A DNA stretch of 64,000 nucleotides from a phage: sequence record PX104379.1. One strand, given 5' to 3'. Shown one piece after another: positions 1 through 64,000 of the stretch (positions are counted from its first letter, which is position 1; each line of letters starts with the position of its first letter). The notes under the pieces were generated by a model. That model searched no databases. It was not told the DNA's origin and saw only the letters and a program-made list of their open reading frames with translations. Position numbers and translations under genes: made by a program.

Positions 1-79
1 TTTCCAAAGGCAAATAGTATCAATAGAACCTGCAATACCATTAGAAACATATTTACGTTCAAAGTTGATGTAGTTCATT
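1..79 (-). CDS. 5' end of a minus-strand gene running off the window start (N-terminus MNYINFERKYVSNGIAG...); hypothetical protein, partial
   Basis: Hand translation of the reverse strand from an ATG near 79 preceded by a GGAGA Shine-Dalgarno; ORF is open to the window edge. Confidence 0.3.
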
Positions 80-146
80 TTTATTCTCCGAGATGTTTAA
101 TTGCGGTACAGGTATATAATATCATATCCTGTACCAAAGTAAACAA

Positions 147-479
147 TTATTTTACTACTTTCCAGTGCTGCATGTCAAGTTTACCGACTTTTTTCATCTT
201 CTCAATTAAACGTTCGGCACGTTGGCGAGCTGTAACATAATACCATTCACCTAATTCATTTTGTTCAATTTTTCCAACGATTACTGTATTCAATTCATAA
301 ATCCAACCAGTAAAGAAATTATGAACTTGAATTGTAAAGGTGAAATCTGTTCCCATACCTTCTGTTGTTTCTACTTCAATAATATCACCTTCAACTGCCA
401 TTAAAAACCACATAGTTTCATCATATTTACCATTGAAGCATTTAGTTTTAACTGCAGCGTTCAGATTAATCGTTTTCAT
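147..479 (-). CDS. hypothetical early protein, 110 aa
   Basis: ORF track; AGGAGA Shine-Dalgarno before the ATG; early-type promoter immediately upstream. Confidence 0.6.
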   Translation of the reverse strand: MKTINLNAAVKTKCFNGKYDETMWFLMAVEGDIIEVETTEGMGTDFTFTIQVHNFFTGWIYELNTVIVGKIEQNELGEWYYVTARQRAERLIEKMKKVGKLDMQHWKVVK

Positions 480-504
480 TTTATTCTCCTTTGTTTGTGT
501 AAGA

Positions 505-545
505 TAATACTATCACAAAGGAACCATACTGTAAACAACTTTGTG
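505..545 (-). promoter_or_regulatory. T4 early-type promoter (GTTTAC -35, TA-rich -10) for ORF 147..479
   Basis: Minus-strand GTTTACA about 17 nt upstream of a TA-rich -10, then SD and ATG; approximate coordinates. Confidence 0.4.
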
Positions 546-559
546 CAATCTTTGGAAAA

Positions 560-585
560 TAAAAAAGGACTCCCGAAGGAGTCCT
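560..585 (-). terminator. rho-independent terminator, GGACUCC-UUCG-GGAGUCC stem-loop followed by U-run
   Basis: Plus strand aaaaaaggactcccgaaggagtcc; on the minus strand this is a UUCG-tetraloop hairpin plus U6, directly after the stop of ORF 590..808. Confidence 0.7.
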
Positions 586-589
586 CAAC

Positions 590-808
590 TTATGCTTTCT
601 GCTTACCAAAACGAGAAGCATCATCTCGAAGAACCGCACGTGCTCGGCGCATGATCTTCTCAACAGTTTGATTGATACGAGAGTTCGACCCACGCTTGTA
701 GCCAGCGCGTTTAGAATCACCAACTTTCTTTTCAACTGCTTTCTTTGCTTTAACTTGTTTTGCCATTATAAATTCTCTTTTAAATGAAAATGCAGGACTT
801 ATTGGCAT
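590..808 (-). CDS. small, highly basic hypothetical protein (likely start at internal MAKQVKAKK, about 766)
   Basis: ORF track; Lys/Arg-rich product; ends immediately before a strong terminator. Confidence 0.5.
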   Translation of the reverse strand: MPISPAFSFKREFIMAKQVKAKKAVEKKVGDSKRAGYKRGSNSRINQTVEKIMRRARAVLRDDASRFGKQKA

Positions 809-1011
809 TGCCTGCGCAAGCCCTCAAGGGGAACATAGGTTTTTGGATATTTAACGACCAGGATAACCATAAACCCGTCATCATTCACATTCAAGAGGTA
901 CACCATAAAACTGCCGGGGTCTTAAAACTATAATGATTCGCAAATCATTAATCAGACAGTTCGATGGCTCCTCGATTTTAGCTCACACTAAGGCAGTGAA
1001 TCTCCAATAAA

Positions 1012-3834: not shown

Positions 3835-3836
3835 AT

Positions 3837-4226: not shown

Positions 4227-4227
<1 letters not shown>
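4030..4227 (-). CDS. hypothetical protein, 65 aa
   Basis: ORF track. Confidence 0.5.
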
Positions 4228-5430
<1,203 letters not shown>

Positions 5431-5434
<4 letters not shown>

Positions 5435-8480: not shown

Positions 8481-9659
8481 TTAAAAGTATTTTTTAAAAC
8501 TCATCATAACTTTATCATCAACATCATTATCAATCTGTGCAACAAGATAAGATGACAGTTCTACTTCTTGTGGCGCGGATTGAACATTATCAGAATTAAG
8601 ATATTCACGAATCCAAGGATATGGGTGTTTAACCGGAGCATCGGTAATTGGGCATGGAAGACCACACTGTTTCATACGAGATACAGTTAAGTAATCAATA
8701 AAGCTCCACATGCTATTTGTATTTAATCCAGGAACATCACCATCTTTAAATAAATGAACTGCCCAATCTTTTTCTTGGCGGTTAACTTCCATGAAAATAT
8801 CAACTGCTTCTTGTTCACACTCTTGAGCAATTTTAACCCATTCATCGCCATCAGTGCCAAGTTGAAGTTGACGAATAATATATTGGGTGCCTTTAAGGTG
8901 AAGCTGCTCATCACGTGCAATGAACTTCATAATCTTGGCATTACCTTCCATGATTTCCATGTTCTTATGGAAGTTAAAGGTACATGCAAAAGATACATAA
9001 AAACGAATAGCTTCCAATGCGTTGATTACATGCAAACAGAGGTAAAGAGATTTCATTAGCTCACGCTTCCAATATGTCTCATGCTCAATAGCATCTTCAA
9101 TAACGTCTTCGTCTGCATTAATTTCTTTTTGGTATTCGATATCAGCTTTAGCGTTTTCCCAATAACGAGTTTTAATCAGAACATCATCATAATAACGTCC
9201 AATGGATTCAGCACGTTTCATAATAGCTTCATCTAATACAATTTCATCAAATACCTTCGATGGATCAGTATAAAGATTTCGCATGATATGTGTATATGAA
9301 CGACTGTGAATAGTTTCACTAAAAGTCCATGTAGCAACCCATGTATCAAGACTTGGGTCTGAAATTAACGACATAAGTACAGCAGACGGTGCACGACCCT
9401 GAATGCTATCTAGAAGTGATTGATACTTCAGGTTATTAGTAAAAATATCTTGCTGATATTGAGGAAGCTTGTTAAATTGCGCAGCATCCATCATTAAGTT
9501 TACTTCTTCAGGACGCCAGAAAAATGACAACTGCTTTTCGGTTAAATCTTCAAAAACTTTATGACGTTGAATATCATAACGCGCAATACCAAGACCTGAA
9601 CCAAAAAACATAGGTTCTTTTAAAACATCAACTGGATTTGTATTAAAAACTGTGCTCAT
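8481..9659 (-). CDS. nrdB: ribonucleotide reductase small (beta) subunit, uninterrupted
   Basis: 392 aa contiguous ORF recognised as class I RNR small subunit; directly downstream of nrdA. Confidence 0.9.
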   Translation of the reverse strand: MSTVFNTNPVDVLKEPMFFGSGLGIARYDIQRHKVFEDLTEKQLSFFWRPEEVNLMMDAAQFNKLPQYQQDIFTNNLKYQSLLDSIQGRAPSAVLMSLISDPSLDTWVATWTFSETIHSRSYTHIMRNLYTDPSKVFDEIVLDEAIMKRAESIGRYYDDVLIKTRYWENAKADIEYQKEINADEDVIEDAIEHETYWKRELMKSLYLCLHVINALEAIRFYVSFACTFNFHKNMEIMEGNAKIMKFIARDEQLHLKGTQYIIRQLQLGTDGDEWVKIAQECEQEAVDIFMEVNRQEKDWAVHLFKDGDVPGLNTNSMWSFIDYLTVSRMKQCGLPCPITDAPVKHPYPWIREYLNSDNVQSAPQEVELSSYLVAQIDNDVDDKVMMSFKKYF

Positions 9660-12532: not shown

Positions 12533-13393
12533 TTATACCGCCATCTTTCCTTTAATTGACGGATGAGATACATAGTTGTTAAGAACAAAATTATGCGGCT
12601 TTGCGAATTGACTCAACCAAAATACCTGCGATTCTGTGTCCCATTCATCAAATTCATCTGGAAATTTTAATTGTAATTCGCATAAATCCATAGGTTCACG
12701 ACGCAAAATTTCTTTACATTGTTCTACGTGATTCATATAGATATGAGTATTACCACCAGAAAATATCAAATCTCCCGGAATAAGATTACACATCTTAGCT
12801 ACAATATGAACTAACGTAGCATATGATGCAATATTAAATGGAAGACCGAGGAAAACATCTACCGAACGTTGATACCACTGCAAATCTAAATAGCCATTAC
12901 GCACATTAAACTGATAGAACATATGACAAGGCGGTAATGCCATATATTTAAGTTCAGCTGGATTCCACGCAGAAACAATTTGACGCCTATCATTTGGCAT
13001 TTTTTTAATACGATCAACAACTTCTATAATTTGGTCTACACCGCCAAAATCGCGCCACTGTTTTCCATAAATTGGACCAAGTTCACCACTATGGTATCCT
13101 AAATCTTTTGCCTGATTTTCGTAATTTTCATCCCAAACTGTTTTGCCTTGGATTAACGAATCGTGTTGAATTAATCGTAAATCATTGACATTTGTGCTTC
13201 CCGATAAAAACCATATTAGCTCAGCAATGCATGCATTCCAGGCGAGCTTCTTAGTTGTTACTGCAGGAAAACCTTTGGTTAAATCCCATCGTAATTTAGT
13301 ACCGAACAAAGCAATTGTTCCTGTGCCCGTTCGGTCATCGGTTTCATAGCCATTTTCAAAAATGTCTTTAATTAAATCTTGGTATTGTTTCAT
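12533..13393 (-). CDS. td: thymidylate synthase, 286 aa, uninterrupted
   Basis: 286 aa contiguous ORF recognised as thymidylate synthase. Confidence 0.9.
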   Translation of the reverse strand: MKQYQDLIKDIFENGYETDDRTGTGTIALFGTKLRWDLTKGFPAVTTKKLAWNACIAELIWFLSGSTNVNDLRLIQHDSLIQGKTVWDENYENQAKDLGYHSGELGPIYGKQWRDFGGVDQIIEVVDRIKKMPNDRRQIVSAWNPAELKYMALPPCHMFYQFNVRNGYLDLQWYQRSVDVFLGLPFNIASYATLVHIVAKMCNLIPGDLIFSGGNTHIYMNHVEQCKEILRREPMDLCELQLKFPDEFDEWDTESQVFWLSQFAKPHNFVLNNYVSHPSIKGKMAV

Positions 13394-13438: not shown

Positions 13439-13798
13439 TCAATACGGTTTAGCATCAAATTTTCTCTCAATTTCAGGTGTGAAATATAATTCTTTACCGC
13501 GTTTGGAAAAGCGACCAATAATATGATAATTATTCTCATCAAACGTGATATTACCAATATCCATAGCTTTCAACCAAATATCGATATTTCTATCCAGCTT
13601 TATGTCAAAATTCCAATACGGAGAACTATTACCGAAAATACTACAAGCGGATTCGGTGAAACAGCTACTATAAATCTTGTCTTTAGGAACTACTAATTGA
13701 TAGACACCTTTAATAAACTGAGGACCTTGCCATTTTGGCTGTTTCGCGTCTTTTTCTAATAGAATAGGGTAATAATTAAAATTCATATTTTCCGCCAT
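13439..13798 (-). CDS. hypothetical protein, 119 aa, between frd and td
   Basis: ORF track; co-oriented; no recognisable motif. Confidence 0.6.
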   Translation of the reverse strand: MAENMNFNYYPILLEKDAKQPKWQGPQFIKGVYQLVVPKDKIYSSCFTESACSIFGNSSPYWNFDIKLDRNIDIWLKAMDIGNITFDENNYHIIGRFSKRGKELYFTPEIERKFDAKPY

Positions 13799-13806: not shown

Positions 13807-14629
<823 letters not shown>

Positions 14630-14645
<16 letters not shown>

Positions 14646-14989
14646 TGAAAGGGGCCATAAGCAAATCCGCTATCTTTAATCATTTTAACTAAAGTTACCA
14701 TTCCTCTGTTAACTGCTTGTGCGATTTCATTAAAAACTTCATCACTATCACCATAAAGATCGCTAAAAAGTTCTAACACGTTCTTCTGAACTTTTAATTT
14801 ACAACCAACAAATTCGCCTACAGTAAATTCGTTTCCGCCAACTCCAGCGTAAAACGTAATTACACCAGTTAATGGTCTTTCACTAGAACATAGGTCGTGT
14901 GATAAATTAATATAAGCCGTCCCGGGCGCAGTTTTAAGTTGGCAACGAATACTTACTCGAGCAATTCCAGCTACACGAATGTCAGACAT
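14630..14989 (-). CDS. hypothetical protein, 119 aa
   Basis: ORF track. Confidence 0.55.
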
Positions 14990-14999
14990 ATTATTTTCC

Positions 15000-16344: not shown

Positions 16345-17253
16345 TTAAAGGTCATTCAAAAGGTCATCCAGGTCCGTGTCATCAGCACTAGATGAACTGC
16401 CAGAGCTTGAGCTCATAAAATCATCTTCAGTTTTTGTATTGAAGTCATCAACATTGAATGCATCCAAATCATCAGCAACTTTATCAGCTTTCTTAGCAGC
16501 AGTTGCAGCAGCACCGCCCATCACAGCAGTTCCCATAACTTGACCGAATTTAGTGCTCAGTTCTTCAAACGATTTGAATTTATCTTTAGAAGTCATTTCA
16601 GAAAGGTCAACCATTTGTTCGAACAGTTCTTTCTGGAAAGATTCATCGTCAATGTTTGGAATCGCAGATTGATTCAGGAATTTAGATTCGTCGTAGTTAC
16701 TAAAACCAGAAACTTGTTTAACTTTCAGTACAAAGTTAGCACCTTCCCACGGACAAGTTACATCAACCGGAGTTTCACCCATTTCAACATCAACTGCAAT
16801 CATTGCGTTGATTTTATCCCAGATTTTCTTACCGAAACGGTATTTAAATACTTTACCTTCATTTTCTGGAGCAGCTGGGTCTTTTACTACAAGAATGTTA
16901 GCCCAGTAAGAAGTTTTACGTTTAACAAGACCGTACTCTTTATTGTCAGTGTTGTACAAATCATTTTTACTGATGTACTGACATACTGGGCAAGAATCGT
17001 AATCACCGTGGGTAGATGAACAGTTTTCAATATACCATTTACCATTTTTCTTGAAACCGTGATTTACAAGAATTGCGAATGGTGCTTGTTCATCATTTTT
17101 AGACGGAAGAAAACGAATTACTGCTTGACCGTTACCCGCATTGTCGAGTTTCAGTTTCCACTCGCCTTTATCTTCAGAAGAAAAACCACCTTTATTTCCA
17201 GCCAGTTTAGCCATTTGTGCAGCGAGTTCAGCAGTAGATTTACGTTTAAACAT
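16345..17253 (-). CDS. 32: gp32 single-stranded DNA-binding protein, 301 aa
   Basis: Recognised as T4 gp32 ([17 protein letters not shown] ... zinc-binding [14 protein letters not shown], acidic Ser/Asp-rich C-terminus). Confidence 0.95.
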
Positions 17254-19618: not shown

Positions 19619-22600
19619 ATGGCCGAGATTAAAAGAAAGTTCAGAGCAGAAGACGGTCTGGACGCAGGTGGTGATAAAATAATCAACGTAGCTTTAGCTG
19701 ATCGTACCGTAGGAACTGACGGTGTTAACGTTGATTACTTAATTCAAGAAAACACAGTTCAACAATACGATCCAACTCGTGGATATTTAAAAGATTTTGT
19801 AATCATTTATGATAACCGCTTTTGGGCTGCTATAAATGATATTCCAAAACCGGCAGGAGCTTTTAATAGCGGACGCTGGAGAGCATTACGTACCGATGCT
19901 AACTGGATTACGGTTTCATCTGGTTCATATCAATTAAAATCTGGTGAAGCTATTTCAGTTAACACCGCAGCTGGTAATGATATTACATTTACTTTACCAT
20001 CTACCCCAATTGATGGTGATACTATCGTTCTCCAAGATATTGGAGGAAAACCTGGAGTTAACCAAGTTTTAATTGTAGCTCCGGTGCAAAGTATTGTAAA
20101 CTTCAGAGGTCAACAAGTACGTTCAGTACTAATGACTCATCCAAAGTCACAGCTAGTTTTAATTTTTAGTAATCGTCTGTGGCAAATGTATGTTGCTGAT
20201 TATAGCAGAGAAGCTGTAGTTGTAACACCAGCGAATACTTATCAAGCACAATCAAACGATTTTATCGTACGTAGATTTACTTCTGCTGCACCAATTAATG
20301 TTAAACTTCCAAGATTTGCTAATCATGGCGATATTATTAATTTCGTTGATTTAGATAAACTGAATCCACTTTATCATACAATTGTTACTACATACGATGA
20401 AACGACTTCAGTGCAAGAAGTTGGAACTCATTCCATTGAAGGCCGTACATCGATTGACGGTTTCTTGATGTTTGATGATAATGAGAAATTGTGGAGATTG
20501 TTTGACGGGGATAGTAAAGCACGTTTACGCATTATAACGACTAATTCTAATATTCGTCCAAACGAAGAAGTTATGGTATTTGGTGCGAATAACGGAACAA
20601 CCCAAACAATTGAGCTTCAGCTTCCTACTAATATCTCCGTTGGTGATACTGTTAAAATTTCCATGAATTACATGAGAAAAGGACAAACAGTTAAAATCAA
20701 AGCTGCCGGTGAAGATAAAATTGCTTCTTCAGTTCAATTGCTGCAATTCCCAAAACGTTCAGAATATCCACCTGAAACTAAATGGGTAACTGTTCAAGAA
20801 TTAGTTTTTAACGGTGAAACTAATTATGTTCCAGTTTTACAGCTTGCTTATATAGAAGATTCTGATGGAAAATACTGGGTTGTACAGCAAAACGTTCCAA
20901 CTGTAGAAAGAGTAGATTCTTTAAATGATTCTACTAGAGCAAGATTAGGCGTAATTGCTTTAGCTACACAGGCTCAAGCTAACGTCGATTTAGAAAATTC
21001 TCCACAAAAAGAATTAGCAATTACTCCAGAAACATTAGCTAACCGTACTGCTACTGAAACTCGCAGAGGTATTGCAAGAATAGCAACTACTGCTCAAGTG
21101 AATCAGAACACTACATTCTCTTTTGCTGATGATATTATCATCACTCCTAAAAAGCTGAATGAAAGAACTGCTACAGAAACTCGCAGAGGTGTTGCTGAAA
21201 TTGCTACGCAGCAAGAAACTAATGCAGGAACCGATGATACTACAATCATTACTCCTAAAAAGCTTCAAGCTCGTCAAGGTTCTGAATCATTATCTGGTAT
21301 TGTAACTTTTGTATCTACTGCAGGTGCTACTCCAGCTTCTAGCCGTGAATTAAATGGTACGAATGTTTATAATAAAAACACTAATAACTTAGTTGTTTCA
21401 CCCAAAGCTTTGGATCAGTATAAAGCTACTCCAACGCAACAAGGTGCAGTAATTTTAGCAGTTGAAAGTGAAGTAATTGCTGGACAGAGTCAAGAAGGAT
21501 GGGCAAATGCTGTTGTAACGCCAGAAACGTTACACAAAAAGACATCAACTGATGGAAGAATTGGTTTAATTGAAATTGCTACGCAAAGTGAAGTTAATAC
21601 AGGAACTGATTATACTCGTGCAGTCACTCCTAAAACTTTAAATGACCGTAGAGCAACTGAAAGTTTAAGTGGTATAGCTGAAATTGCTACGCAAGTTGAA
21701 TTCGACGCAGGCGTCGACGATACTCGTATCTCTACACCATTAAAAATTAAAACCAGATTTAATAGTACTGATCGTACTTCTGTTGTTGCTCTATCTGGAT
21801 TAGTTGAATCAGGAACTCTCTGGGACCATTATACCCTTAATATTCTTGAAGCAAATGAGACACAACGTGGTACACTTCGTGTAGCTACACAAGTTGAAGC
21901 TGCTGCAGGAACATTAGATAATGTTTTAATAACTCCTAAAAAGCTTTTAGGTACTAAATCTACCGAAGCACAAGAAGGTGTTATTAAAGTTGCAACTCAG
22001 TCTGAAACTGTGGCTGGAACGTCAGCGAACACCGCTGTATCTCCAAAAAATTTAAAATGGATTGTGCAGAGTGAACCTACCTGGGCAGCTACTACTGCGA
22101 TAAGAGGTTTTGTTAAAACTTCATCCGGTTCAATTACATTCGTTGGTAATGATACAGTCGGTTCTACCCAAGATTTAGAACTGTATGAGAAAAATAGCTA
22201 TGCAGTATCACCATATGAATTAAACCGTGTATTAGCAAATTATTTACCGTTAAAAGCAAAAGCTGCTGATACAAATTTATTGGATGGTCTAGATTCATCT
22301 CAGTTCATTCGTAGGGATATTGCACAGACGGTTAATGGTTCACTAACCTTAACCCAACAAACGAATCTGAGTGCCCCTCTTGTATCATCTAGTACTGCTA
22401 CGTTTGGTGGATCAGTTTCGGCAAATAGTACATTAACTATTTCTAATACTGGAACGGCAACTCGTCTGATTTTTGAGAAAGGACCTCAAACTGGAACTAA
22501 CCCAGCACAGACGATGACTATCAGAGTTTGGGGAAATCAGTTTAGTGGCGGATCAGATACAACGCGTTCTACTGTATTTGAAGTTGGTGATGAAACATCT

Positions 22601-23488
22601 AATCACTTTTATTCTCAACGTAATAAAGCTGGTAATATAACGTTTAGTATCAATGGTACTGTAATGCCAATAAACATTAATGCTTCGGGTTCTTTAAATG
22701 CGAATGGCGTTGCAACATTTGGTAGTTCAGTTACTGCTAATGGCGAATTCATCAGCAAGTCTGCAAATGCTTTTAGAGCAATTAGTGGTGATTACGGATT
22801 CTTTATTCGCAATGATGCTGCTAATACCTATTTTATGCTCACTGCATCCGGTGATCAGACTGGCGGATTTAATGGATTACGTCCTTTGTCTATTAATAAT
22901 GCATCTGGCCAAGTAACGATTGGTGAAAGCTTAATCATTGCCAAAGGTGCTACTATAAATTCAGGTGGTTTGACTGTTAACTCGAGAATTCGTTCTCAAG
23001 GTACTAAAACATCTGACTTATATACACGTGCGCCAACATCTGATACTGTAGGATTCTGGTCAATTGATATTAATGATTCAGCTACTTATAACCAGTTCCC
23101 GGGTTATTTTAAAATGGTTGAAAAAACTAATGAAGTGACTGGACTTCCGTACTTAGAACGTGGCGAAGAAGTTAAATCTCCTGGTACACTGACACAGTTT
23201 GGTAACACACTTGATTCGCTTTACCAAGATTGGATTACTTATCCAACGACACCAGAAGCGCGTACCACTCGCTGGACACGTACATGGCAGAAAACCAAAA
23301 ACTCTTGGTCAAGTTTTGTTCAGGTATTTGACGGAGGTAACCCTCCTCAACCATCTGATATCGGTGCTTTACCATCTGATAATGCTACAATGGGGAATCT
23401 TACTATTCGTGATTTCTTACGAATTGGTAATGTTCGCATTATTCCTGACCCAGTGAATAAAACTGTTAAATTTGAATGGGTTGAATAA
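19619..23488 (+). CDS. 34: long tail fibre proximal subunit gp34, 1289 aa
   Basis: 1289 aa, same length as T4 gp34; first gene of the late plus-strand block after rnh. Confidence 0.95.
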   Translation: MAEIKRKFRAEDGLDAGGDKIINVALADRTVGTDGVNVDYLIQENTVQQYDPTRGYLKDFVIIYDNRFWAAINDIPKPAGAFNSGRWRALRTDANWITVSSGSYQLKSGEAISVNTAAGNDITFTLPSTPIDGDTIVLQDIGGKPGVNQVLIVAPVQSIVNFRGQQVRSVLMTHPKSQLVLIFSNRLWQMYVADYSREAVVVTPANTYQAQSNDFIVRRFTSAAPINVKLPRFANHGDIINFVDLDKLNPLYHTIVTTYDETTSVQEVGTHSIEGRTSIDGFLMFDDNEKLWRLFDGDSKARLRIITTNSNIRPNEEVMVFGANNGTTQTIELQLPTNISVGDTVKISMNYMRKGQTVKIKAAGEDKIASSVQLLQFPKRSEYPPETKWVTVQELVFNGETNYVPVLQLAYIEDSDGKYWVVQQNVPTVERVDSLNDSTRARLGVIALATQAQANVDLENSPQKELAITPETLANRTATETRRGIARIATTAQVNQNTTFSFADDIIITPKKLNERTATETRRGVAEIATQQETNAGTDDTTIITPKKLQARQGSESLSGIVTFVSTAGATPASSRELNGTNVYNKNTNNLVVSPKALDQYKATPTQQGAVILAVESEVIAGQSQEGWANAVVTPETLHKKTSTDGRIGLIEIATQSEVNTGTDYTRAVTPKTLNDRRATESLSGIAEIATQVEFDAGVDDTRISTPLKIKTRFNSTDRTSVVALSGLVESGTLWDHYTLNILEANETQRGTLRVATQVEAAAGTLDNVLITPKKLLGTKSTEAQEGVIKVATQSETVAGTSANTAVSPKNLKWIVQSEPTWAATTAIRGFVKTSSGSITFVGNDTVGSTQDLELYEKNSYAVSPYELNRVLANYLPLKAKAADTNLLDGLDSSQFIRRDIAQTVNGSLTLTQQTNLSAPLVSSSTATFGGSVSANSTLTISNTGTATRLIFEKGPQTGTNPAQTMTIRVWGNQFSGGSDTTRSTVFEVGDETSNHFYSQRNKAGNITFSINGTVMPININASGSLNANGVATFGSSVTANGEFISKSANAFRAISGDYGFFIRNDAANTYFMLTASGDQTGGFNGLRPLSINNASGQVTIGESLIIAKGATINSGGLTVNSRIRSQGTKTSDLYTRAPTSDTVGFWSIDINDSATYNQFPGYFKMVEKTNEVTGLPYLERGEEVKSPGTLTQFGNTLDSLYQDWITYPTTPEARTTRWTRTWQKTKNSWSSFVQVFDGGNPPQPSDIGALPSDNATMGNLTIRDFLRIGNVRIIPDPVNKTVKFEWVE

Positions 23489-23496
23489 GAGGTATT

Positions 23497-24612
23497 ATGG
23501 AAAAATTTATGGCAGAGTTTGGACAAGGATATGTCCAAACGCCATTTTTATCGGAAAGCAATTCAGTAAGATATAAAATAAGCATAGCGGGTTCTTGCCC
23601 GTTTTCTACAGCAGGACCATACGTTAAATTTCAGGATAATCCTGTAGGAAGTCAAACATTTAGCGCAGGCCTTCATTTAAGAGTTTTTGACCCTTCCACC
23701 GGAGCATTAGTTGATAGTAAATCATATGCTTTTTCGACTTCAAATGATACTACATCAGCTGCTTTTGTTAGTTTCATGAATTCTTTGACGAATAATCGAA
23801 TTGTTGCTATATTAACTAGTGGAAAGGTTAATTTTCCTCCTGAAGTAGTATCTTGGTTAAGAACCGCCGGAACGTCTGCTTTTCCATCTGATTCTATATT
23901 GTCAAGATTCGACGTATCATATGCTGCTTTTTACACTTCTTCTAAACGAGCTATTGCATTAGAACATGTTAAACTAAGTAATAGAAAAAGCACAGATGAT
24001 TATCAAACTATTTTAGATGTAGTATTTGACAGTTTAGAAGATGTCGGAGCTACCGGGTTTCCAAGAAGAACGTATGAAAGTGTTGAGCAATTCATGTCAG
24101 CGGTTGGTGGAACCAATAACGAAATTGTGCGTCTACCAACTTCAGCTACTATAAGTAAATTATCTGATTATAATTTAATTCCTGGTGACGTTCTTTATCT
24201 TAAAGCCCAGTTATATGCTGATGCCGATTTACTTTCTCTTGGAACAACAAATATATCTATCCGTTTTTATAATGCATCTAACGGATATATTTCCTCGACA
24301 CAAGCTGAGTTTACTGGACAAGCTGGGTCTTGGGAATTAAAGGAAGATTATGTAGTTGTTCCAGAAAATGCAGTTGGATTTACGATATATGCGCAGAGAA
24401 CTGCTCAAGCGGGGCAAGGCGGTATGCGAAATTTAAGCTTTTCTGAAGTATCAAGAAATGGCGGAATTTCAAAACCTGCTGAATTTGGCGTCAATGGTAT
24501 TCGTGTTAATTATATCTGTGAATCTGCTTCACCTCCGGATATAATGGTACTTCCTACACAAGCATCGTCTAAAACTGGTAAAGTGTTTGGGCAAGAATTT
24601 AGAGAAGTATAA
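23497..24612 (+). CDS. 35: long tail fibre hinge (knee) protein gp35
   Basis: 371 aa; order 34-35-36-37. Confidence 0.9.
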   Translation: MEKFMAEFGQGYVQTPFLSESNSVRYKISIAGSCPFSTAGPYVKFQDNPVGSQTFSAGLHLRVFDPSTGALVDSKSYAFSTSNDTTSAAFVSFMNSLTNNRIVAILTSGKVNFPPEVVSWLRTAGTSAFPSDSILSRFDVSYAAFYTSSKRAIALEHVKLSNRKSTDDYQTILDVVFDSLEDVGATGFPRRTYESVEQFMSAVGGTNNEIVRLPTSATISKLSDYNLIPGDVLYLKAQLYADADLLSLGTTNISIRFYNASNGYISSTQAEFTGQAGSWELKEDYVVVPENAVGFTIYAQRTAQAGQGGMRNLSFSEVSRNGGISKPAEFGVNGIRVNYICESASPPDIMVLPTQASSKTGKVFGQEFREV

Positions 24613-24617
24613 ATTGA

Positions 24618-24643
24618 GGGAGCCTTCGGGTTCCCTTTTTCTT
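24618..24643 (+). terminator. rho-independent terminator after gene 35 (UUCG tetraloop hairpin plus U-run)
   Basis: gggagcc-ttcg-ggttccc followed by ttttt. Confidence 0.65.
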
Positions 24644-24651
24644 TATAAATA
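24644..24651 (+). promoter_or_regulatory. T4 late promoter TATAAATA for genes 36-37
   Basis: Exact TATAAATA about 24 nt upstream of the gene 36 ATG. Confidence 0.7.
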
Positions 24652-24674
24652 CTATTAAAATAAAGGGGCATACA

Positions 24675-25340
24675 ATGGCTGATTTAAAAGTAGGTTCAAC
24701 AACCGGAGGCTCTGTCATTTGGCATCAAGGAAATTTTCCATTGAATCCAGCTGGTGACGATGTACTCTATAAATCATTTAAAATATATTCAGAATATAAT
24801 AAACCGCAGGCAGCTGATAACGATTTCGTTTCTAAAGCTAATGGTGGTACTTATGCATCAAAGGTAACATTTAACGGCGGCGTCCAAGTCCCGTATGCTG
24901 TAAACAACACAAACCCATGCGGTATTTATCCAGGTAACGGTGATAATGCTACTTTTGCTGTAGCAAATATTGATATTGTTTCGTGGAATGGTATTGGTTT
25001 TAAATCATCGCAAGGTTCAGCAGCTCGAACTGTTGTAATTAATGCACGTAATGGTGATATTAACACAAAAGGTGTTGTGTCTGCGGCAGGTCAAGTAAGA
25101 AGTGATGCAGCTGCTCCTATAGCAGCGAATGACCTTACTAGAAAGGACTATGTTGATGAAGCAATAAATACTGTTACAGCAAATGCGAACTCTAGAGTGT
25201 TGCGTTCTGGCGACACTATGATAGGTAATTTAACCGCGCCAAACTTTTTCTCACAGAATCCTGCGTCTCAACCTTCACATGTTCCACGATTTGATCAAAT
25301 CGTAATTAAGGATTCTGTTCAAGATTTCGGCTATTATTAA
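24675..25340 (+). CDS. 36: long tail fibre distal connector gp36, 221 aa
   Basis: 221 aa as T4 gp36; late promoter upstream. Confidence 0.9.
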
Positions 25341-40539: not shown

Positions 40540-40580
40540 TTAATTATACCACATCCTTGTGGTAAAGTAAACTACTGGCT
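40540..40580 (-). promoter_or_regulatory. T4 early-type promoter overlapping the gene 39 stop
   Basis: Plus strand aattatacc ... 16 nt ... gtaaac. Confidence 0.4.
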
Positions 40581-42392
40581 CATCCATTCTTTACGAAGAT
40601 CAGCATTATCTCCCATGAGCATTTCAAAAAGCTCTTTCCAGTTCTCAGGAAGTTTAACAACATCATATACCGGATTTTGAATCATCTCACGATATTCAGA
40701 TTTTTCCAAAGAGCCAAGTCCCTTAATATAACGGATGCTATGTTTAGGTAGAGCATCTTTAGCACTCTCATATTCAGCGACTGTATAAAACCATTCTTGT
40801 TTTTTACCGACCTGAGCGATGATTACAGGAGTTTTGACAAAGCGAATTCGTCCTTGCTCAAACAATTCTGGCCAATTACTAAAAAACCCGAGCAGAGAAG
40901 GATAAATGCTTCCTAAACCATCATGGTCAGCATCGGTCATAATAGCAATATTATGATAATTCAAGTTTTCAGCTTTTTCACCAAGAACTAATCCAGTGAT
41001 TGCGCAAATATCAAACAGTTCTTTGTTTTTAAGCATATCAGCATATGACATACCCCAACTGTTGAGAACTTTACCACGCAATGGATAACCACCATGAAGT
41101 TCTTTATCACGAACATCAATAAGATATCCGATAGCAGAATCACCCTCAGTCAAGAAAAGAGTAGTATCAGCATCTTTACCACAAAGATTCGCTTTGATAT
41201 GTTTATGAACCTTAGCTTTAGAAGCCTTTTTAGCTGCTTTAGTTTCTGCTGCTTTTTCTGCTGCCAATTTACGGGCCAAAGCAGCTTCAATAATCGGCAT
41301 TAAAATTGCTTCATTATTTAGAATAGCGCGTGAAATCTTTTTAGCATCAAGTTGAATATGACTACGAATTTCACCAAAAGGAGAAGTAAGTCGTTCTTTA
41401 GTTTGAGAATCAAATCGCATGTTTTTCATATCACGGACAAACATAACGATAGTCAAACATTCTTTAACGCGTGCTTTAGTTACATCAATTTTGAACTTAC
41501 GTTTGATTTGTGGAATAAGGTCTTCACAAATATCATCCATAACACAGTCAATGTGATGGCCACCATTCTTAGTGTGAATGTTATTCACATAAGTTAATTG
41601 GCGAAATCCATCCGGTGAACGACCAACCGCAATAGAACAATTTTCTTGTTCTTGAACAATAGCATGTTCATCATACTGTCGTGCATATTTCTTAAAATTG
41701 CCCTGAACCTTTTTACCATTAAAGGTAAATTGAATATCAGGATAAACAACAGCAAGTGTCTGGAGACGATCTAGTGTAATGTCAAGATAAACTTGGGACA
41801 GCTCATTAGTTTCAAATGACATAAAATCTGGAATGAAAGTAACACGAGTTCCTTTCCATTTTCCAGGAATAGTTTCCCAGGATTTATTTTCCATGCCATT
41901 TGAACAACGAACTACAATATTATTTTGACCATCGCCAGTTTCACCGACAAACATCACAGAAAAAATGTTAGTTAAACTAGAACCAACACCATTCATACCA
42001 CCGGTGACGCGTTCTTTATCATCACCGAAGTTACCACCTGCTTTTGGAATAGTCCAAGCAGCAACTGGACCAGGAATTTCTTCACCGGTAGGTGTTTTAA
42101 CCATCGCTTGTGGAATACCGCGACCGTTATCTTCAACTGTTACCTGATTATTTTTAATGGTAACATTAATTTTATTCGCGAATTTAAACTTAGTACGAAT
42201 ACCTTCATCGACTGAGTTATCGATAATTTCATCAATAAGCTTAACAAGACCAGGTACATACTGAACACTTTCCCATTTACCAAACAGAAAGCGCTCATGC
42301 ATTTCATTAGCAGAAGAGCCAATGTACATGCCACTACGCTTTTTGATATGTTCAATATCGCTCAGAATTTTAATTTCATTCTTAATCATCAC
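40572..42392 (-). CDS. 39: DNA topoisomerase II large subunit gp39 (GyrB-like), unsplit, 606 aa
   Basis: Single contiguous 606 aa ORF with ATPase and Toprim regions; no separate gene 60. Confidence 0.9.
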   Translation of the reverse strand: MMIKNEIKILSDIEHIKKRSGMYIGSSANEMHERFLFGKWESVQYVPGLVKLIDEIIDNSVDEGIRTKFKFANKINVTIKNNQVTVEDNGRGIPQAMVKTPTGEEIPGPVAAWTIPKAGGNFGDDKERVTGGMNGVGSSLTNIFSVMFVGETGDGQNNIVVRCSNGMENKSWETIPGKWKGTRVTFIPDFMSFETNELSQVYLDITLDRLQTLAVVYPDIQFTFNGKKVQGNFKKYARQYDEHAIVQEQENCSIAVGRSPDGFRQLTYVNNIHTKNGGHHIDCVMDDICEDLIPQIKRKFKIDVTKARVKECLTIVMFVRDMKNMRFDSQTKERLTSPFGEIRSHIQLDAKKISRAILNNEAILMPIIEAALARKLAAEKAAETKAAKKASKAKVHKHIKANLCGKDADTTLFLTEGDSAIGYLIDVRDKELHGGYPLRGKVLNSWGMSYADMLKNKELFDICAITGLVLGEKAENLNYHNIAIMTDADHDGLGSIYPSLLGFFSNWPELFEQGRIRFVKTPVIIAQVGKKQEWFYTVAEYESAKDALPKHSIRYIKGLGSLEKSEYREMIQNPVYDVVKLPENWKELFEMLMGDNADLRKEWMSQ

Positions 42393-45249: not shown

Positions 45250-45290
45250 ACCATTATACTCTGGTCCCAAGAGTTTGTAAACTAGCTTAC
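45250..45290 (-). promoter_or_regulatory. T4 early-type promoter
   Basis: Plus strand ccattatactc ... 16 nt ... tgtaaac. Confidence 0.4.
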
Positions 45291-53643: not shown

Positions 53644-53889
53644 TTATTCACCAGTTACTTTCCACAAATCTTCGTTTGCAGTAATCCATTCAGTACGTTG
53701 ATTTTCTTCATATACTGTAGAATATGCTGCTTTTTCTGAAGGGAATGTCTGGTAATGAGCACCAGAAATTTTATGAACGTCAGAATAAAGAGGGAAAGCT
53801 ACGGAAATTTCCTTTCCTTCAATTTTCTTATTTCCATCTAATTTCTGCTCAAATGTTTTGATATTAACATAACCGCGAGTACTAGCCAT
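53644..53889 (-). CDS. soc: small outer capsid protein Soc
   Basis: Sequence MASTRGYVNIKTFEQKLDGNKKIEGKEISVAFPLYSDVHK recognised as Soc. Confidence 0.95.
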   Translation of the reverse strand: MASTRGYVNIKTFEQKLDGNKKIEGKEISVAFPLYSDVHKISGAHYQTFPSEKAAYSTVYEENQRTEWITANEDLWKVTGE

Positions 53890-53919
53890 GTAATTCTCCT
53901 TTTATTTAAATTACATGAT

Positions 53920-53927
53920 TATTTATA
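53920..53927 (-). promoter_or_regulatory. T4 late promoter TATAAATA for soc
   Basis: Exact TATAAATA on the minus strand about 30 nt upstream of the soc ATG. Confidence 0.65.
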
Positions 53928-53957
53928 ATAAATTCTCGCGGCTTTTAAGACGAGCTG

Positions 53958-54476
53958 TTAATAACCTCGGTCCTGACGAGCAAAGTTCTCGGCATTTTTC
54001 AGATAATAAAGTTTAAAGATTTCTTCTGCTGTAAGACCAAGACCCTGGAACATATTCAGAACGAAATGAAGAATATCAATCATTTCAAATTTAATTTCTA
54101 ACTGGTCTTGTGGAGACAAATCAGTAATCAGAGTTTCACGACGTTCACCATGCTGCGACTTCCAAGGTTTCCATACAGCAGATGCGTCTTTTTCACCATT
54201 ACTCATACCACCAAGAGAAGTCAGAAGTTCACGGAATTCATCGTCAATATAATCTTTCTGATTACGCAACCAATCAACAACTTCACCGGCAGTAGCCAAG
54301 TCATCAGGATGACGATTATATTCAGGTTTATCTTTAGCTAAACGAATCTGCAGAGATTTCTGCATGTCAAGCATTACCTGCAGCGGGTCTTTTTCATCAC
54401 CGAGAATATCCCAATATTCATTTTGAGCTTTATCAGCGCCTTCGATCAGTTGACTACATTCGTTGAAATGTGGCAT
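53958..54476 (-). CDS. 56: dCTP/dCDP pyrophosphatase gp56 (MazG-like), 172 aa
   Basis: 171-172 aa; recognised as T4 gp56. Confidence 0.9.
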   Translation of the reverse strand: MPHFNECSQLIEGADKAQNEYWDILGDEKDPLQVMLDMQKSLQIRLAKDKPEYNRHPDDLATAGEVVDWLRNQKDYIDDEFRELLTSLGGMSNGEKDASAVWKPWKSQHGERRETLITDLSPQDQLEIKFEMIDILHFVLNMFQGLGLTAEEIFKLYYLKNAENFARQDRGY

Positions 54477-54477
54477 G

Positions 54478-55128
54478 TTATTTTTCCTTTCTTATGAAGT
54501 TTTCTATCATATGTCTATAGCAGATATTAGGATAACCTGCCTTGACAGCTATTTTATTAAATTTTGTGCGCTTAGGTCTATTATTATAAACCCATAATTC
54601 ATAAAGCGCATCATAACTATTCCATATTTCTCCTCGCCTAGGATTTGGTAAACCATATCGAGGTGAATTTTTACCGCTAAATCTTCCTTTTCGGGCTTTA
54701 CTCATATTAGCCTTGGCTTCATCGGATATAATTTTACCTTTATGAGCTAGACGCATTTTGGCTTTAGTTTCTTCTGGGGTCTTTTTGCCTTTAATCCATG
54801 ACGGCTTGCCATATCTAGGATTATTTTCACCCGAGAAAAGAACAGAGTTTTGGATTTTAAGGGTTTCTATTAATCTACTTGTTAATTTAACACCTTTATT
54901 ATATCGCATTAAATTTACAGCATAATGCAATCCTCTCACATCTGGATATATTTTAGTTAATAATCTATGAGCTATAAAATGCTCACGCGCAGTTAACTCA
55001 ACAAGATTGTTTTTGTCATCTGCTCCTCCTATACATCTAGGAATTATATGATGGCGTTCTTTATATCCGCCAAGATGCCGGCATTTAGCTTTTGTAATTA
55101 AAGCCGAGTAAATTTTTTGGTAATTCAC
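54478..55128 (-). CDS. HNH homing-endonuclease-like protein with NUMOD3 DNA-binding repeats, 216 aa
   Basis: HNH motif ERHHIIPRCIGGADDKNNLVELTAREHFIAH; two NUMOD3-like repeats (PEETKAKMRLAHKGK, SDEAKANMSKARKGR). Confidence 0.8.
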   Translation of the reverse strand: MNYQKIYSALITKAKCRHLGGYKERHHIIPRCIGGADDKNNLVELTAREHFIAHRLLTKIYPDVRGLHYAVNLMRYNKGVKLTSRLIETLKIQNSVLFSGENNPRYGKPSWIKGKKTPEETKAKMRLAHKGKIISDEAKANMSKARKGRFSGKNSPRYGLPNPRRGEIWNSYDALYELWVYNNRPKRTKFNKIAVKAGYPNICYRHMIENFIRKEK

Positions 55129-55198
55129 ATATATCCTTTCAATTCATGGGTTAGTAGATTAATTATACAATAAATATATAAAGCAATAAGGAGGATAT

Positions 55199-55399
55199 AT
55201 GGTACAAAAATTAATGGCACTTGTTAATGCCATAAAAGGTAATAAAAAACGTATAGCTTTTACTATTTCTGCTATGGTAGGAATTTTACTCTGGAACTTT
55301 ATTTTATCACCAATTGCAATTGCGCATGGTGTTAATATTCCAGTAGTTACTCTTGATACATTCGTAGATCTAGCATTTGCTTTAGTTGGGTTAATTTAA
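55199..55399 (+). CDS. small membrane protein, 66 aa, opposite strand to the surrounding early genes
   Basis: Strong AAGGAGG Shine-Dalgarno 7 nt upstream of the ATG; hydrophobic helices; no overlapping minus-strand ORF. Confidence 0.55.
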   Translation: MVQKLMALVNAIKGNKKRIAFTISAMVGILLWNFILSPIAIAHGVNIPVVTLDTFVDLAFALVGLI

Positions 55400-61386: not shown

Positions 61387-61463
61387 TCATTTTTTCCATA
61401 GGCATCATTATATTTTCCTCACTGGTTAAAGATAGAGTAATTATAACACAATAAATTTAGGCA

Positions 61464-62312
61464 TTAATCAACTGCTATCGGATGAATAGCATTAAACTTA
61501 TGAAATGCTTCTGATTTTTCTTTGCGCGAAACACACATGCGAAGAACCTTTAATGGCTCGTCTTCTTCACCCAACGATTTTCGTTTTTCAATATTAGAAG
61601 TTTTCCAACGAGCTTGCTCTGGAAACTCTCTATTGATTTGCTCAAGCGCTCTATTATGTTTAGAATTACTACGAATTGAACTACACCCGCCAGGAGCTTG
61701 CGCTTTACCTGATACAACCAGATATTTGAACAAGGCCAAATGCGGATAACCTTGATTAATTAAATTGAGAAATGCATACATATCTTCGCACAAATCAATT
61801 TTTCCATACCCAATTTGTTCTGTCGTAAGTTTTCCAAGGTCATACCATGTATTCGTGAATCCATATGAATTTTCACGATAATTACCCCAAGATGAAGTAA
61901 TTTTAAAAATAGGTAGACGAGCATGACCGTGATAATACCCGCAATCCATAGCATCTTCAACGTATTGAATCAATTCGTAGAATTGTTCACGGGTTAATTG
62001 ATTGACTTTATCTACACAGCGACGATCATCTCTTTTTCGCATTGAGCTCATACGAATCGTAGTATCATCGTCAATCATCCAGATTCGTTGACCTGCATAC
62101 ATATCAGTAATTGCTTTACGAGTACCGGCAATTCCGTTTACATCATCAGGAATAGTTACAATTTTAGCTCTAGACCCGTAAGCGTCATAATAAGCTTTTT
62201 CTTCGTGTTCACGCACTACAATATGGGGTTCATAATCAGTTGGAAACATATCAAGGGCAGAAACTGCCCCAACACGCTGATAGCTTGGAATTACGAATTG
62301 AATCATTTCCAC
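61464..62312 (-). CDS. putative glycosyltransferase (GT-A-like) at the beta-gt locus, 282 aa
   Basis: N-terminal VIPSYQR and DxD-type motif IWMIDDDTTI; lies between uvsX and 42. Confidence 0.6.
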   Translation of the reverse strand: MEMIQFVIPSYQRVGAVSALDMFPTDYEPHIVVREHEEKAYYDAYGSRAKIVTIPDDVNGIAGTRKAITDMYAGQRIWMIDDDTTIRMSSMRKRDDRRCVDKVNQLTREQFYELIQYVEDAMDCGYYHGHARLPIFKITSSWGNYRENSYGFTNTWYDLGKLTTEQIGYGKIDLCEDMYAFLNLINQGYPHLALFKYLVVSGKAQAPGGCSSIRSNSKHNRALEQINREFPEQARWKTSNIEKRKSLGEEDEPLKVLRMCVSRKEKSEAFHKFNAIHPIAVD

Positions 62313-63043
62313 TCACCGTTATAATCTTTTTTCACAATATGAGTTTCGCCAGTATTCCACCAATGATCAACCAAGTAAAAATGACGAGAATATACATGAA
62401 GACTTCCAACATTCCATATAATAGAACCTGCTTTATACTGACGAGTTGAATCGCCTGCATTCAAATCAGATACTAATTTATCTAATACGTATTTTTGCCA
62501 TGCATAATCATTACGGAATCCGAAGACCACGTCATTTGAACGCATGCTTACTACTGCATTGACTTTCTTATCACGAATCAGGTACTGTACTGTATTAGTA
62601 CACATGAAATCTGACATACCATCTTTATTGTAGTCAAATTGCATGGATGGACGAGTATAAATCATGATACCACGTCGAGAATCAGGATTTTGACCAAGTT
62701 CAGCTAAACACATATCATACTGGGCATAGTTATCTTCTGACCAAATAGCCCAACCATAATTCGAGTTAATTTCGCCTTTAGAAGATGCTACCTGCTGCCA
62801 AATCTTTGGTGTTTCACCTGGAATATCTTTAACAAACAAGCTCTTAGATTTATACCATTCAAGTTCGCGCTGAATGTATTCATCATTAAGAGCGCCAAAA
62901 ATAAACGGTTCATCTGCTACAAATGATGCGCCAATAATTTCAATAGTTTTAACACCGGTTTTATCAACTACGAAATCTTTTTCTTTTAATGCAAGCCCCA
63001 AATGAAGACGGATTTCTTCAACTGTCATAGAGTCACTAATCAT
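62303..63043 (-). CDS. 42: dCMP hydroxymethylase gp42, 246 aa
   Basis: 246 aa as T4 gp42; thymidylate-synthase-like fold. Confidence 0.9.
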   Translation of the reverse strand: MISDSMTVEEIRLHLGLALKEKDFVVDKTGVKTIEIIGASFVADEPFIFGALNDEYIQRELEWYKSKSLFVKDIPGETPKIWQQVASSKGEINSNYGWAIWSEDNYAQYDMCLAELGQNPDSRRGIMIYTRPSMQFDYNKDGMSDFMCTNTVQYLIRDKKVNAVVSMRSNDVVFGFRNDYAWQKYVLDKLVSDLNAGDSTRQYKAGSIIWNVGSLHVYSRHFYLVDHWWNTGETHIVKKDYNGEWK

Positions 63044-63196
63044 TTAAACCTCAATTGATACATTCATATTTAACTTGTAACAGTAATAAACTCCACCCTA
63101 AAATAATAGTTGGAATCATAAGAGGAACCGTTACGCTATAGTATATACTTATTATAATCATCAAGATTAAAAGCAACACTGTTATAATTTTGCTTT

Positions 63197-63448
63197 TCAT
63201 TCCTTCTCTCTGATGATAATTACTTGATTTTGTTGTGCAGACTTTTTAGTTTCACCCGCAATTGACCAAATAAATGTAATAAACCAACCAATAATTGACC
63301 AGTTAAACAGTAAAGATGTGAAAAAGATTCCTACTGTCGATTTTGACCCACGCATCAAGGCGATAAACCATGGAAGCATGTATATAATAATAGCCAACAC
63401 ACCTGAAACTAAAACCATAAAAATTGAACCTGCTACTAAAGTTTCCAT
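63197..63448 (-). CDS. imm: Imm superinfection immunity membrane protein, 83 aa
   Basis: 83 aa, two TM helices; sequence METLVAGSIFMVLVSGVLAIIIY recognised. Confidence 0.85.
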   Translation of the reverse strand: METLVAGSIFMVLVSGVLAIIIYMLPWFIALMRGSKSTVGIFFTSLLFNWSIIGWFITFIWSIAGETKKSAQQNQVIIIREKE

Positions 63449-63455
63449 GTTTTCC

Positions 63456-63836
63456 TCACTTAGTCAAATTTTTTACGCATGAATTATAAGAATTCACTAC
63501 ATACTCCATCGGAGCATTTTTACCAGTACGCCATTGGTAATTATTAGCCCAATTAGCCCAAAGCTCGGCGCAGTAATTTTCAATTTTTTCTTCGCGTGTA
63601 ATTACATCAGAATTACGATATGCTTGAGCAGATTCATCTGGACGAATAGCTTCGTCAAAATTCGCCTGCATTTGTTCGACTGTTTGCTTTGGAGCTTCTT
63701 TATAACACTTGACATTAGGATTATAAAATTTGCTTGAACAGTTTACAATTTTTCCTACATCAGACTGATTTACTACCGGTCCTTGAGCTACACAACCAGT
63801 AAGACCTAATGCAATAACCAAAATAGCGATTTTCAT
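63456..63836 (-). CDS. putative lipoprotein, 126 aa
   Basis: Signal peptide with lipobox LTGC. Confidence 0.55.
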   Translation of the reverse strand: MKIAILVIALGLTGCVAQGPVVNQSDVGKIVNCSSKFYNPNVKCYKEAPKQTVEQMQANFDEAIRPDESAQAYRNSDVITREEKIENYCAELWANWANNYQWRTGKNAPMEYVVNSYNSCVKNLTK

Positions 63837-63848
63837 AATAATTTCCTC

Positions 63849-64000
63849 TTAAAACTTAACAAATAACTTTAAAGCATCTTCAGTTTTAATTCCTTTTCTT
63901 ACACCCATAACAGAAATTGGCTGTGACTGAAATTTTCCTTTACCATTATAAATTTCTAATCCAGTAACCATTCCATTTTGTTCTATAATACCGTAAGTAT
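63849..64000 (-). CDS. 3' end of a minus-strand gene entering from beyond the window (C-terminus ...GVRKGIKTEDALKLFVKF); hypothetical protein, partial
   Basis: Hand translation of the reverse strand; open frame to the window edge. Confidence 0.35.
   Translation of the reverse strand, partial: TYGIIEQNGMVTGLEIYNGKGKFQSQPISVMGVRKGIKTEDALKLFVKF

Follow-up and report, generated by a model that had tools for sequence, protein, structure and literature searches.

A T4-collinear Tequatrovirus genome segment, closest to phage FriedrichZschokke, carries known T-even modules and lacks the homing endonuclease genes of the T4 interval

Introduction

A stretch of 64,000 bases in the phage sequence record PX104379.1, hereafter the window, follows the gene order of bacteriophage T4 across the rIIA/rIIB junction and differs from T4 at several loci. 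All comparisons in this study were confined to that stretch. It raises the question of what kind of genome it represents: T4 itself, T2 or T6, a cross among these phages, an assembly that joins several co-occurring phages, or a natural relative with its own combination of genes. T4 has been described as an oddity among the T-even phages, with 15 homing endonuclease genes (Edgell, Gibb and Belfort, PMC2988022), and homing and co-conversion were reported to drive marker exchange among these phages (PMC2988022). In this study, we found that the window is almost certainly a contiguous piece of a natural virulent T-even coliphage of the genus Tequatrovirus, closest to the teqhad/FriedrichZschokke group, and that each of its differences from T4 is a gene variant known from T2, T6 or another relative with a sequenced genome.

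Collinearity with T4

The window was compared with T4 (NC_000866) by BLASTN, and 57,571 of the 64,000 bases aligned at 94.2% identity in 29 collinear blocks. On the T4 map these blocks span 129775-168903 and then 1-27013, at the end of imm.1, with order and orientation unchanged. TBLASTN with T4 proteins detected orthologues of 102 of the 114 genes of this interval at a coverage of at least 80%, with order and orientation kept. The median protein identity of the 102 orthologues was 98.0%, and 78 genes were at least 95% identical. The other twelve T4 genes were absent or replaced. Such collinearity is far beyond chance. An earlier reading made without database searches (the sequence-only reading) had described many products as matching T4 nearly residue for residue, and the TBLASTN identities bear this out. 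The same reading had called the window a T-even relative with several differing loci; the comparison with T4 found neither identity at every locus nor a lack of T-even similarity.

The sequence-only reading had also set the limits of collinearity at pseT and imm. The gene order stood, and the limits had to be moved outwards. The window opens within 30.7, whose 5' end (1..78, minus strand) is cut by the window edge; residues 1-26 of T4 gp30.7 are 100% identical by TBLASTN, and the first BLASTN block starts at T4 129775. This is about 4.2 kb before pseT (polynucleotide kinase; 4227..5135, minus strand), which is 99.0% identical to T4 PseT over 301 aa. At the other end, collinearity runs through gene 42 (dCMP hydroxymethylase), imm and imm.1 (62303..63836, minus strand; 97.1%, 97.6% and 99.2% identical to T4), and the window ends past imm.1. 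Between these limits lie rIIB (37176-38114) and rIIA (38126-40303), both on the minus strand, with identities to T4 of 99.4% and 97.9%. Their junction at 38114/38126 corresponds to the conventional zero of the T4 map and is crossed by a BLASTN block that runs from T4 167014 to 168903 and on from 1 to 2806. The strand layout is also T4-like. Early and middle genes for nucleotide metabolism, replication, host take-over and rII functions lie on the minus strand and read leftward, and the late cluster of genes 34-38 plus t lies on the plus strand. The GC content is 32-39%.

These observations bear on a possible origin from T4 proper or from a strain derived from it in the laboratory. The gene order is identical, many proteins are 98-100% identical and gp38 reaches 99.5%, all of which T4 would show. 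However, the aligned part reaches no more than 94% nucleotide identity, twelve genes of T4 are missing or have been replaced, and no exact run shared with T4 exceeds 372 bp. On the identity, the missing genes and the short exact runs, the window was rejected as T4 or a derivative of T4.

Absence of the T4 introns and homing endonuclease genes

We next consider the T4 genes that are missing. In T4 the large topoisomerase subunit is split between genes 39 and 60. The window carries an unsplit gene 39 (topoisomerase II large subunit; 40572..42389, minus strand) with no gene 60 bypass, 60.1 or mobA. Its single 605-aa open reading frame (ORF) spans both homologies, as had been read from the sequence: by TBLASTN it aligned with T4 gp39 residues 1-473 and gp60 residues 27-160, and by BLASTN 51 bp stand in place of T4 2806-3911, which holds the 50-nt bypass, 60.1 and mobA. 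The product is identical to that of T6 at 604 of 605 residues and to that of T2 at 603 of 605. TBLASTN gave no match to 60.1 in the window and none to mobA at the 39/60 junction. The sole mobA match was a weak one of 21 residues at 54997-55059, inside the MobE-like HNH ORF described below.

The reading of td and nrdB as intronless was likewise upheld. The nrdB gene (8481..9659, minus strand) is a continuous ORF of 392 aa, 90% identical to spliced T4 NrdB, and BLASTN joined window 8983/8986 to T4 138457/139058, so that exactly 598 bp, the I-TevIII intron, are missing. The td gene (thymidylate synthase; 12533..13393, minus strand) is a continuous ORF of 286 aa without I-TevI, and window 12844/12845 joins T4 143546/144564 with exactly 1017 bp missing. 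No group I intron was matched by Rfam over the window, and neither I-TevI nor I-TevIII was matched by TBLASTN; Rfam and a tRNA scan, both run across all 64,000 bases, gave no match of any kind.

Further absences went beyond those in the sequence-only reading, namely nrdB.1/mobE, segG, segA and 60.1/mobA. In the nrdB-nrdA interval, T4 139719-140420 (nrdB.1/mobE) is replaced by 55 bp. Gene 32 (16345..17253, minus strand) is followed directly by gene 59 (17353-18006, minus strand) without segG; window 17316/17352 joins T4 147918/148542 by BLASTN, and TBLASTN found no SegG match in the window. Thus all seven homing endonuclease genes of the T4 interval, I-TevI, I-TevIII, mobE, mobA, segG, segF and segA, are absent. 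Since T4 is the outlier, with 15 homing endonuclease genes, and the seven of this interval are missing here, most of the differences from T4 reflect a peculiarity of T4. The window exemplifies two points made in PMC2988022, that T4 is the outlier in homing endonuclease load and that T-even genomes are patchworks.

Nearest relatives and mosaic structure

Megablast searches with each third of the window returned several hundred Tequatrovirus records that cover at least 80% of it at 95-98% identity. No record in these searches was identical, and none was at least 99% identical over a long stretch. About 57 kb with 94-95% identity to T4, T2 and T6 and an unchanged gene order place the window in Tequatrovirus. 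Among the records, Escherichia phage FriedrichZschokke (FZ; Bas41, MZ501067, Tequatrovirus teqhad) comes closest, with six collinear blocks that span 62,730 of the 64,000 bases at 96.9% identity. Over the first 3.5 kb the identity is 99.7%, and an exact run of 3,270 bp lies at the left end. The species rule of the International Committee on Taxonomy of Viruses asks for at least 95% identity over the genome. Identical bases number 60,795 of 64,000 (95.0%), exactly on the border of that threshold, and this figure describes the window rather than the whole genome.

FZ shares with the window the unsplit gene 39, the intronless td and nrdB, the glucosyltransferase gene ba-gt, the lack of dam, the tandem AdfA-like genes and the triplet of MotB-family genes. 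Its tail fibre genes are also alike, with a 1091-aa gp37 and a T4-type gp38. Unlike the window, FZ carries a second gene resembling ac, a pair of small ORFs in the soc-56 gap and, between cd.2 and cd.3, an endonuclease-like ORF, whereas it lacks the DUF7247 ORF (14630-14989) and the HNH gene (54478-55128) of the window. Every segment that FZ lacks occurs elsewhere: 14638-14986 in T6, and the stretch from soc to 61 in vB_EcoM_G4498 (G4498; NC_054918). For each variable module, another sequenced Tequatrovirus (T2, T6, G4498 or AndreasVesalius) offers a match of 95-100%.

The classical phages resemble the window in different ways. Unlike the window, T4 has in this interval the seven homing endonuclease genes, two introns, the split 39/60 with its 50-nt bypass, dam and beta-gt; it lacks about 15 small ORFs, the HNH gene next to 56 and ba-gt, and it is like the window in its chaperone type of gp38 and in a gp37 with a C-terminal adhesin. 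T2 and T6 share with the window the unsplit 39, ggt (also called ba-gt) and the intronless nrdB, and T2 alone shares the intronless td. T6 also has the dam-less 56/dam.1/61 junction, the DUF7247 ORF and the RB14ORF015 ORF. In contrast, T2 and T6 carry a gp38 adhesin of about 262 aa, another gp37 C-terminus and soc.1 plus soc.2; the window also has neither the td intron and mobE found in T6 nor the dam found in T2. The sequence-only reading had proposed a T-even relative that joins a T4-type gp38 to T2/T6-like features, and this was found: gp39 is identical to T6 at 604 of 605 residues, the ggt product to T2 at 277 of 280, and the dam-less junction is that of T6. The combination is not unusual, as the pairing of a T4-type gp38 with T2/T6 alleles also occurs in FriedrichZschokke, KAW1E185, KMB23 and other records.

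Near-exact alleles of T6 or T2 at gp39, ggt and the dam-less junction, next to a T4-type chaperone, might also be expected of a strain of T2 or T6, or of a cross between T2, T6 and T4 made recently or in the laboratory. We consider this origin highly improbable. Overall identity is 94.8% to T2 (MH751506) and 95.1% to T6 (MH550421), the td intron and mobE of T6 and the dam of T2 are all missing, and the T2/T6 gp37 tip and gp38 adhesin are unmatched in the window. A recent cross would leave identical blocks of kilobase length, whereas the longest exact run with T4, T2 or T6 is 374 bp, and no 100%-identical blocks of more than 2 kb alternating between the classical phages were found. The best reference among T4, T2 and T6 changes every few 500-bp bins. 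With such switches and exact runs of at most 374 bp, the window is not a recent or laboratory cross and comes from a phage of a natural population that recombines.

If the assembly had joined two or more co-occurring T-even phages into a chimera, the combination of modules would be artefactual. Such a chimera would fit the lack of an identical genome on record and a per-kilobase identity to the nearest relative that varies from 62% to 100%. However, the window is collinear with FZ, the genome of a single isolate, over 62.7 kb; the segments unlike FZ are clean intergenic insertions or deletions with the same junctions in T6, G4498 and ELT1, and all ORFs are intact. As independent isolates show each of the junctions, an assembly chimera is unlikely, although somewhat less so than a T2/T6 strain or cross.

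A natural virulent Tequatrovirus close to FZ thus accounts best for the window. Several points weigh against this reading: no record is identical and the best reaches only about 97%, look-ups of gp37 and gp34 found no exact match on record, the evidence covers 64 kb with the alpha-gt locus and the rest of the genome beyond it, and the recombination history is one that we infer from patterns of identity. Since no identical genome was found, the strain is new or unindexed, and its content consists of known modules. The window adds one more combination of such modules to a well-sampled genus, and its value lies in correct annotation.

Four known classes account for the differences from T4. The first is the absence of selfish elements, the seven T4 endonuclease genes, with one MobE-like HNH gene at another site. 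The second is the T2/T6 allele for glucosylation of hydroxymethylcytosine (hmC), with ba-gt for beta-gt and, as in T6, no Dam methylase. The third is a recombinant receptor-binding tip of gp37 serviced by a T4-type gp38 chaperone, and the fourth a swapping of small ORFs within known hyperplastic regions. The patchwork may have been produced by homologous recombination when T-even phages infect the same cell, with homing endonucleases also gained and lost. The phage would make hmC DNA through genes 42 and 56, add a second glucose through ba-gt and leave GATC unmethylated, and it would recognise its host by the C-terminal tip of gp37, whose folding the T4-type gp38 would assist.

Glucosyltransferase and the hydroxymethylcytosine pathway

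Between uvsX and 42, in the position of T4 segA and beta-gt, the window carries a gene for a 280-aa beta-glucosyl-HMC-alpha-glucosyltransferase (ggt or ba-gt; 61464..62306, minus strand). The sequence-only reading had placed a glycosyltransferase, labelled GT-A, where T4 has beta-gt, and the replacement is evident from the identity of 277 of 280 residues to T2 ggt. The product also matches phrog_842 (1e-89) and the Pfam family TAGT (PF20691) at 38.1 bits, above the cutoff of 27.5.

T4 beta-gt has a GT-B fold. A PDB sequence search with the glucosyltransferase gave nothing significant, and structure models were compared. The single-sequence AlphaFold model had a predicted local distance difference test (pLDDT) of 39 and was unusable; an AlphaFold2 model from a 10-sequence alignment had a pLDDT of 69, with residues 1-80 exceeding 84. 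The top Foldseek matches of the model in the PDB were GT-A enzymes, K4CP, TarS/TarP, DPMS, GpgS and ABO GTA/GTB. These matches were weak, with E values of 1.5e-3 or weaker and TM (template modelling) scores of 0.2-0.38, and related nucleotidyltransferases ranked next. In the family alignment, DDD at 79-81 is invariant. On this model, a GT-A fold for the glucosyltransferase is plausible, and the evidence, weak as the matches are, agrees with GT-A and not with the GT-B fold of T4 beta-gt.

The hmC pathway is represented in the window by gp42 (97% identical to T4), the dCTPase gp56 (74%) and ba-gt, and the alpha-gt locus lies outside it. In the glucosylation pattern of T2 and T6, the second glucose is added by ba-gt. 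By its likeness to the T2 enzyme, ba-gt would transfer a second glucose onto alpha-glucosyl-hmC. The predicted virion DNA would carry gentiobiosyl/alpha-glucosyl hmC in the T2/T6 style and no phage Dam (GATC) methylation.

Tail fibre genes and the gp37 tip

Genes 34, 35 and 36 of the long tail fibre (19619..25340, plus strand) are 96%, 98% and 91% identical to T4 gp34, gp35 and gp36. Gene 37 follows (25349..28621, plus strand) and encodes the distal long tail fibre with its C-terminal adhesin tip. Its divergent tip has extra repeat units, and the protein, noted before as longer than in T4, has 1090 aa against 1026 at 61% identity. It contains the Pfam Collar domain. Within the tip, identity over residues ~943-1042 is 26-28% to T4 and 100% to FZ; in the comparison with FZ the fully identical stretch is residues 950-1049. 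The last 48 residues keep the HxH repeats and 90% identity to T4. Over the whole gene, identity to FZ is about 89% at the nucleotide level, and the closest gp37-gp38 module is that of AndreasVesalius (96.4%).

Gene 38 (28651..29202, plus strand) encodes a T4-type tail-fibre assembly chaperone of 183 aa. All 183 residues aligned with T4 gp38 at 99.5% identity, so the gp38 type had been read correctly. Neither the adhesin-type gp38 of T2 and T6 (~262 aa) in the gp38 region nor the T2/T6 gp37 tip gave a nucleotide match. As the gp37 tip is unlike that of T4 and identical to that of FZ, receptor choice should follow FZ; judged from the tip sequence, we predict a FriedrichZschokke-type host receptor choice and not that of the T4 tip.

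Gene 37 also contains two in-frame tandem repeats, one of 30 nt in 2.3 copies at 28115-28184 and one of 27 nt in 2.4 copies at 28457-28520, which encodes GIGAHTHTV with HxH. Both are one unit longer than their counterparts in the T4 tip. The needle architecture of gp37 is presumably that of the T4 gp37 tip structure, and the extra unit in each repeat then suggests a joint lengthening of the outgoing and the returning needle strand.

The HNH gene next to gene 56 and the absence of dam

The genes soc (53644-53889) and 56 (53958-54476), both on the minus strand (53644..54476), are 68 bp apart. This gap holds neither the segF of T4, in agreement with the sequence-only reading, nor the soc.1/soc.2 of T2, T6 and FZ. 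Immediately upstream of gene 56 is a free-standing MobE-like HNH homing endonuclease gene of 216 aa with a GTG start (54478..55128, minus strand). The ORF belongs to phrog_655, homing endonuclease (1e-59). Pfam matched NUMOD3 in it (8e-7, 29.3 bits; cutoff 20.4), and the HNH match (0.0019, 18.8 bits) fell under the cutoff of 21.4. The N-terminal catalytic domain, the first 81 residues, is 62% identical to T4 MobE, and the two proteins have the motif HHIIPR...NN...H..H in common; identity to T6 MobE is 43% overall. Since the C-terminal half could not be aligned with MobE, the target is probably different. The PDB sequence search gave nothing significant for this protein. MobE of T4 and T6 is likewise a free-standing intergenic HNH gene with a patchy distribution among relatives. 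The protein of the window has NUMOD3 repeats, a DNA-binding module, and its gene lies upstream of gene 56, whereas mobE lies between nrdA and nrdB.

The sequence-only reading had put an HNH gene where T4 carries dam. The HNH gene is present and dam is absent, with no TBLASTN match to T4 Dam anywhere in the window, but a single replacement did not hold up. The HNH gene is found in the window, G4498 and ELT1 and has matches in about 30 phage records, and the same site is empty, with clean junctions, in T4, T2, T6 and FZ. In the 56-61 alignment, the window, T6, FZ and G4498 have one and the same dam-less junction with the small ORF dam.1 (55129..55399, the ORF itself at 55199-55399, plus strand), and dam is present in T4, T2 and ELT1. 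ELT1 has the HNH cassette together with dam (56, HNH, dam, dam.1, 61), and the window and G4498 have it without dam. Because the HNH gene occurs both with and without dam, its insertion and the absence of dam are two independent polymorphisms. Compared over the soc-61 interval, G4498 has the same arrangement of soc, 56, HNH, dam.1 and 61 in one piece at 97.7% identity; elsewhere it ranks below FZ. About 30 records cover at least 80% of this stretch, and about 20 besides G4498 cover essentially all of it. The dam.1 ORF, named from the T6 annotation, encodes a hydrophobic protein of 66 aa and is conserved in all seven aligned phages; its T4 counterpart, at ~17736-17935, is unannotated in NC_000866.

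One loose thread is whether the HNH protein is active. The insertion point of the cassette falls precisely between the start codon of gene 56 and the ribosome-binding site (RBS) region of that gene, and an RBS-like motif, TAT(T/A)T(T/A)TCCTTTC, is present on both sides of it (54430-54480 and 55125-55150). The first 40 nt of gene 56 differ from FZ by nine substitutions, compared with 0-6 in other 40-nt blocks. These substitutions are mostly synonymous and common to the HNH carriers G4498 and ELT1; the cluster may reflect immunity of a homing site or co-conversion. The gene may encode an active, uncharacterised homing endonuclease that targets gene 56 at its 5' end or the intergenic DNA next to it, near oriA, a tentative proposal that we hold with less than even confidence. 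Homing, if true, would explain the clean insertion between the start codon and the RBS, the presence of the gene in both dam-plus (ELT1) and dam-less backgrounds, and, through immunity or co-conversion, the gene 56 substitutions shared by the carriers.

Small ORFs and replaced early genes

About 15 small ORFs absent from T4 had not been listed in the sequence-only reading. They include 5132-5434, 13439-13798, 14388-14645, 14630-14989, 15301-15594, 35989-36270, 42725-43102, 43926-44722, 47456-47716 and 56593-56949. Every one of the extra ORFs belongs to an existing PHROG family and is annotated in T2, T6 or FZ. The ORF between pseT and pseT.1 (5132..5434, minus strand; 100 aa, RB32ORF217c type) lies in phrog_2364, of unknown function, had no Pfam or PDB match, and forms a 295-bp insertion relative to T4 that is present in T2, T6 and FZ. 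Between td and frd, an ORF of 119 aa (13439..13798, minus strand; RB32ORF229c type, phrog_1928) forms a 405-bp insertion present in the same three phages. The FZ record labels the homologues of both as "putative homing endonuclease". This label looks unsupported because Pfam, the PHROG descriptions and the PDB sequence searches gave no nuclease signal. The DUF7247 ORF (14630..14989, minus strand; 119 aa, RB51ORF237 type) matched its Pfam family with E=1e-29. It occurs in T6 and is absent from T4, T2 and FZ, and the bin 14001-15000 is 95% identical to T6.

The motB region is replaced by three tandem MotB-family ORFs (44303-44722, 44732-45208 and 45282-45719, minus strand), with Pfam motB matches of 6e-20, 5e-43 and 8e-8. 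Identity to T4 MotB is no more than 47% for the central ORF, and the triplet is 99-100% identical to FZ. It forms a small family of tandem paralogues. A 118-aa paralogue of the C-terminal half of AdfA (56593-56949) lies beside the full-length 61.2/AdfA (56951-57577), both on the minus strand, with Pfam AdfA matches of 7e-8 and 4.6e-135; the short gene is a 309-bp insertion relative to T4. For AdfA, the anti-DarT factor (T4 61.2), T2 has the short form only, T4 and T6 the long form only, and the window and FZ both.

Between 39.1 and 39.2, an ORF of 125 aa that is absent from T4 (42725-43102, minus strand) resembles weakly, in its N-terminal ~90 residues, the mRNA metabolism modulator goF (phrog_13003, 3e-8), and the real goF lies two genes away. 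At ~34382-34501 (minus strand), the T4-type ac gene for acridine resistance is replaced by a paralogue of 37% identity, and FZ has both in tandem. Two further genes match their T6 counterparts in length: arn.4 (31632-31961, minus strand) has 109 aa against 68 aa in the T4 annotation, and 30.9 (590-808, minus strand) has 72 aa against 58 aa. The T4 versions of arn.4 and 30.9 may be truncated or annotated too short.

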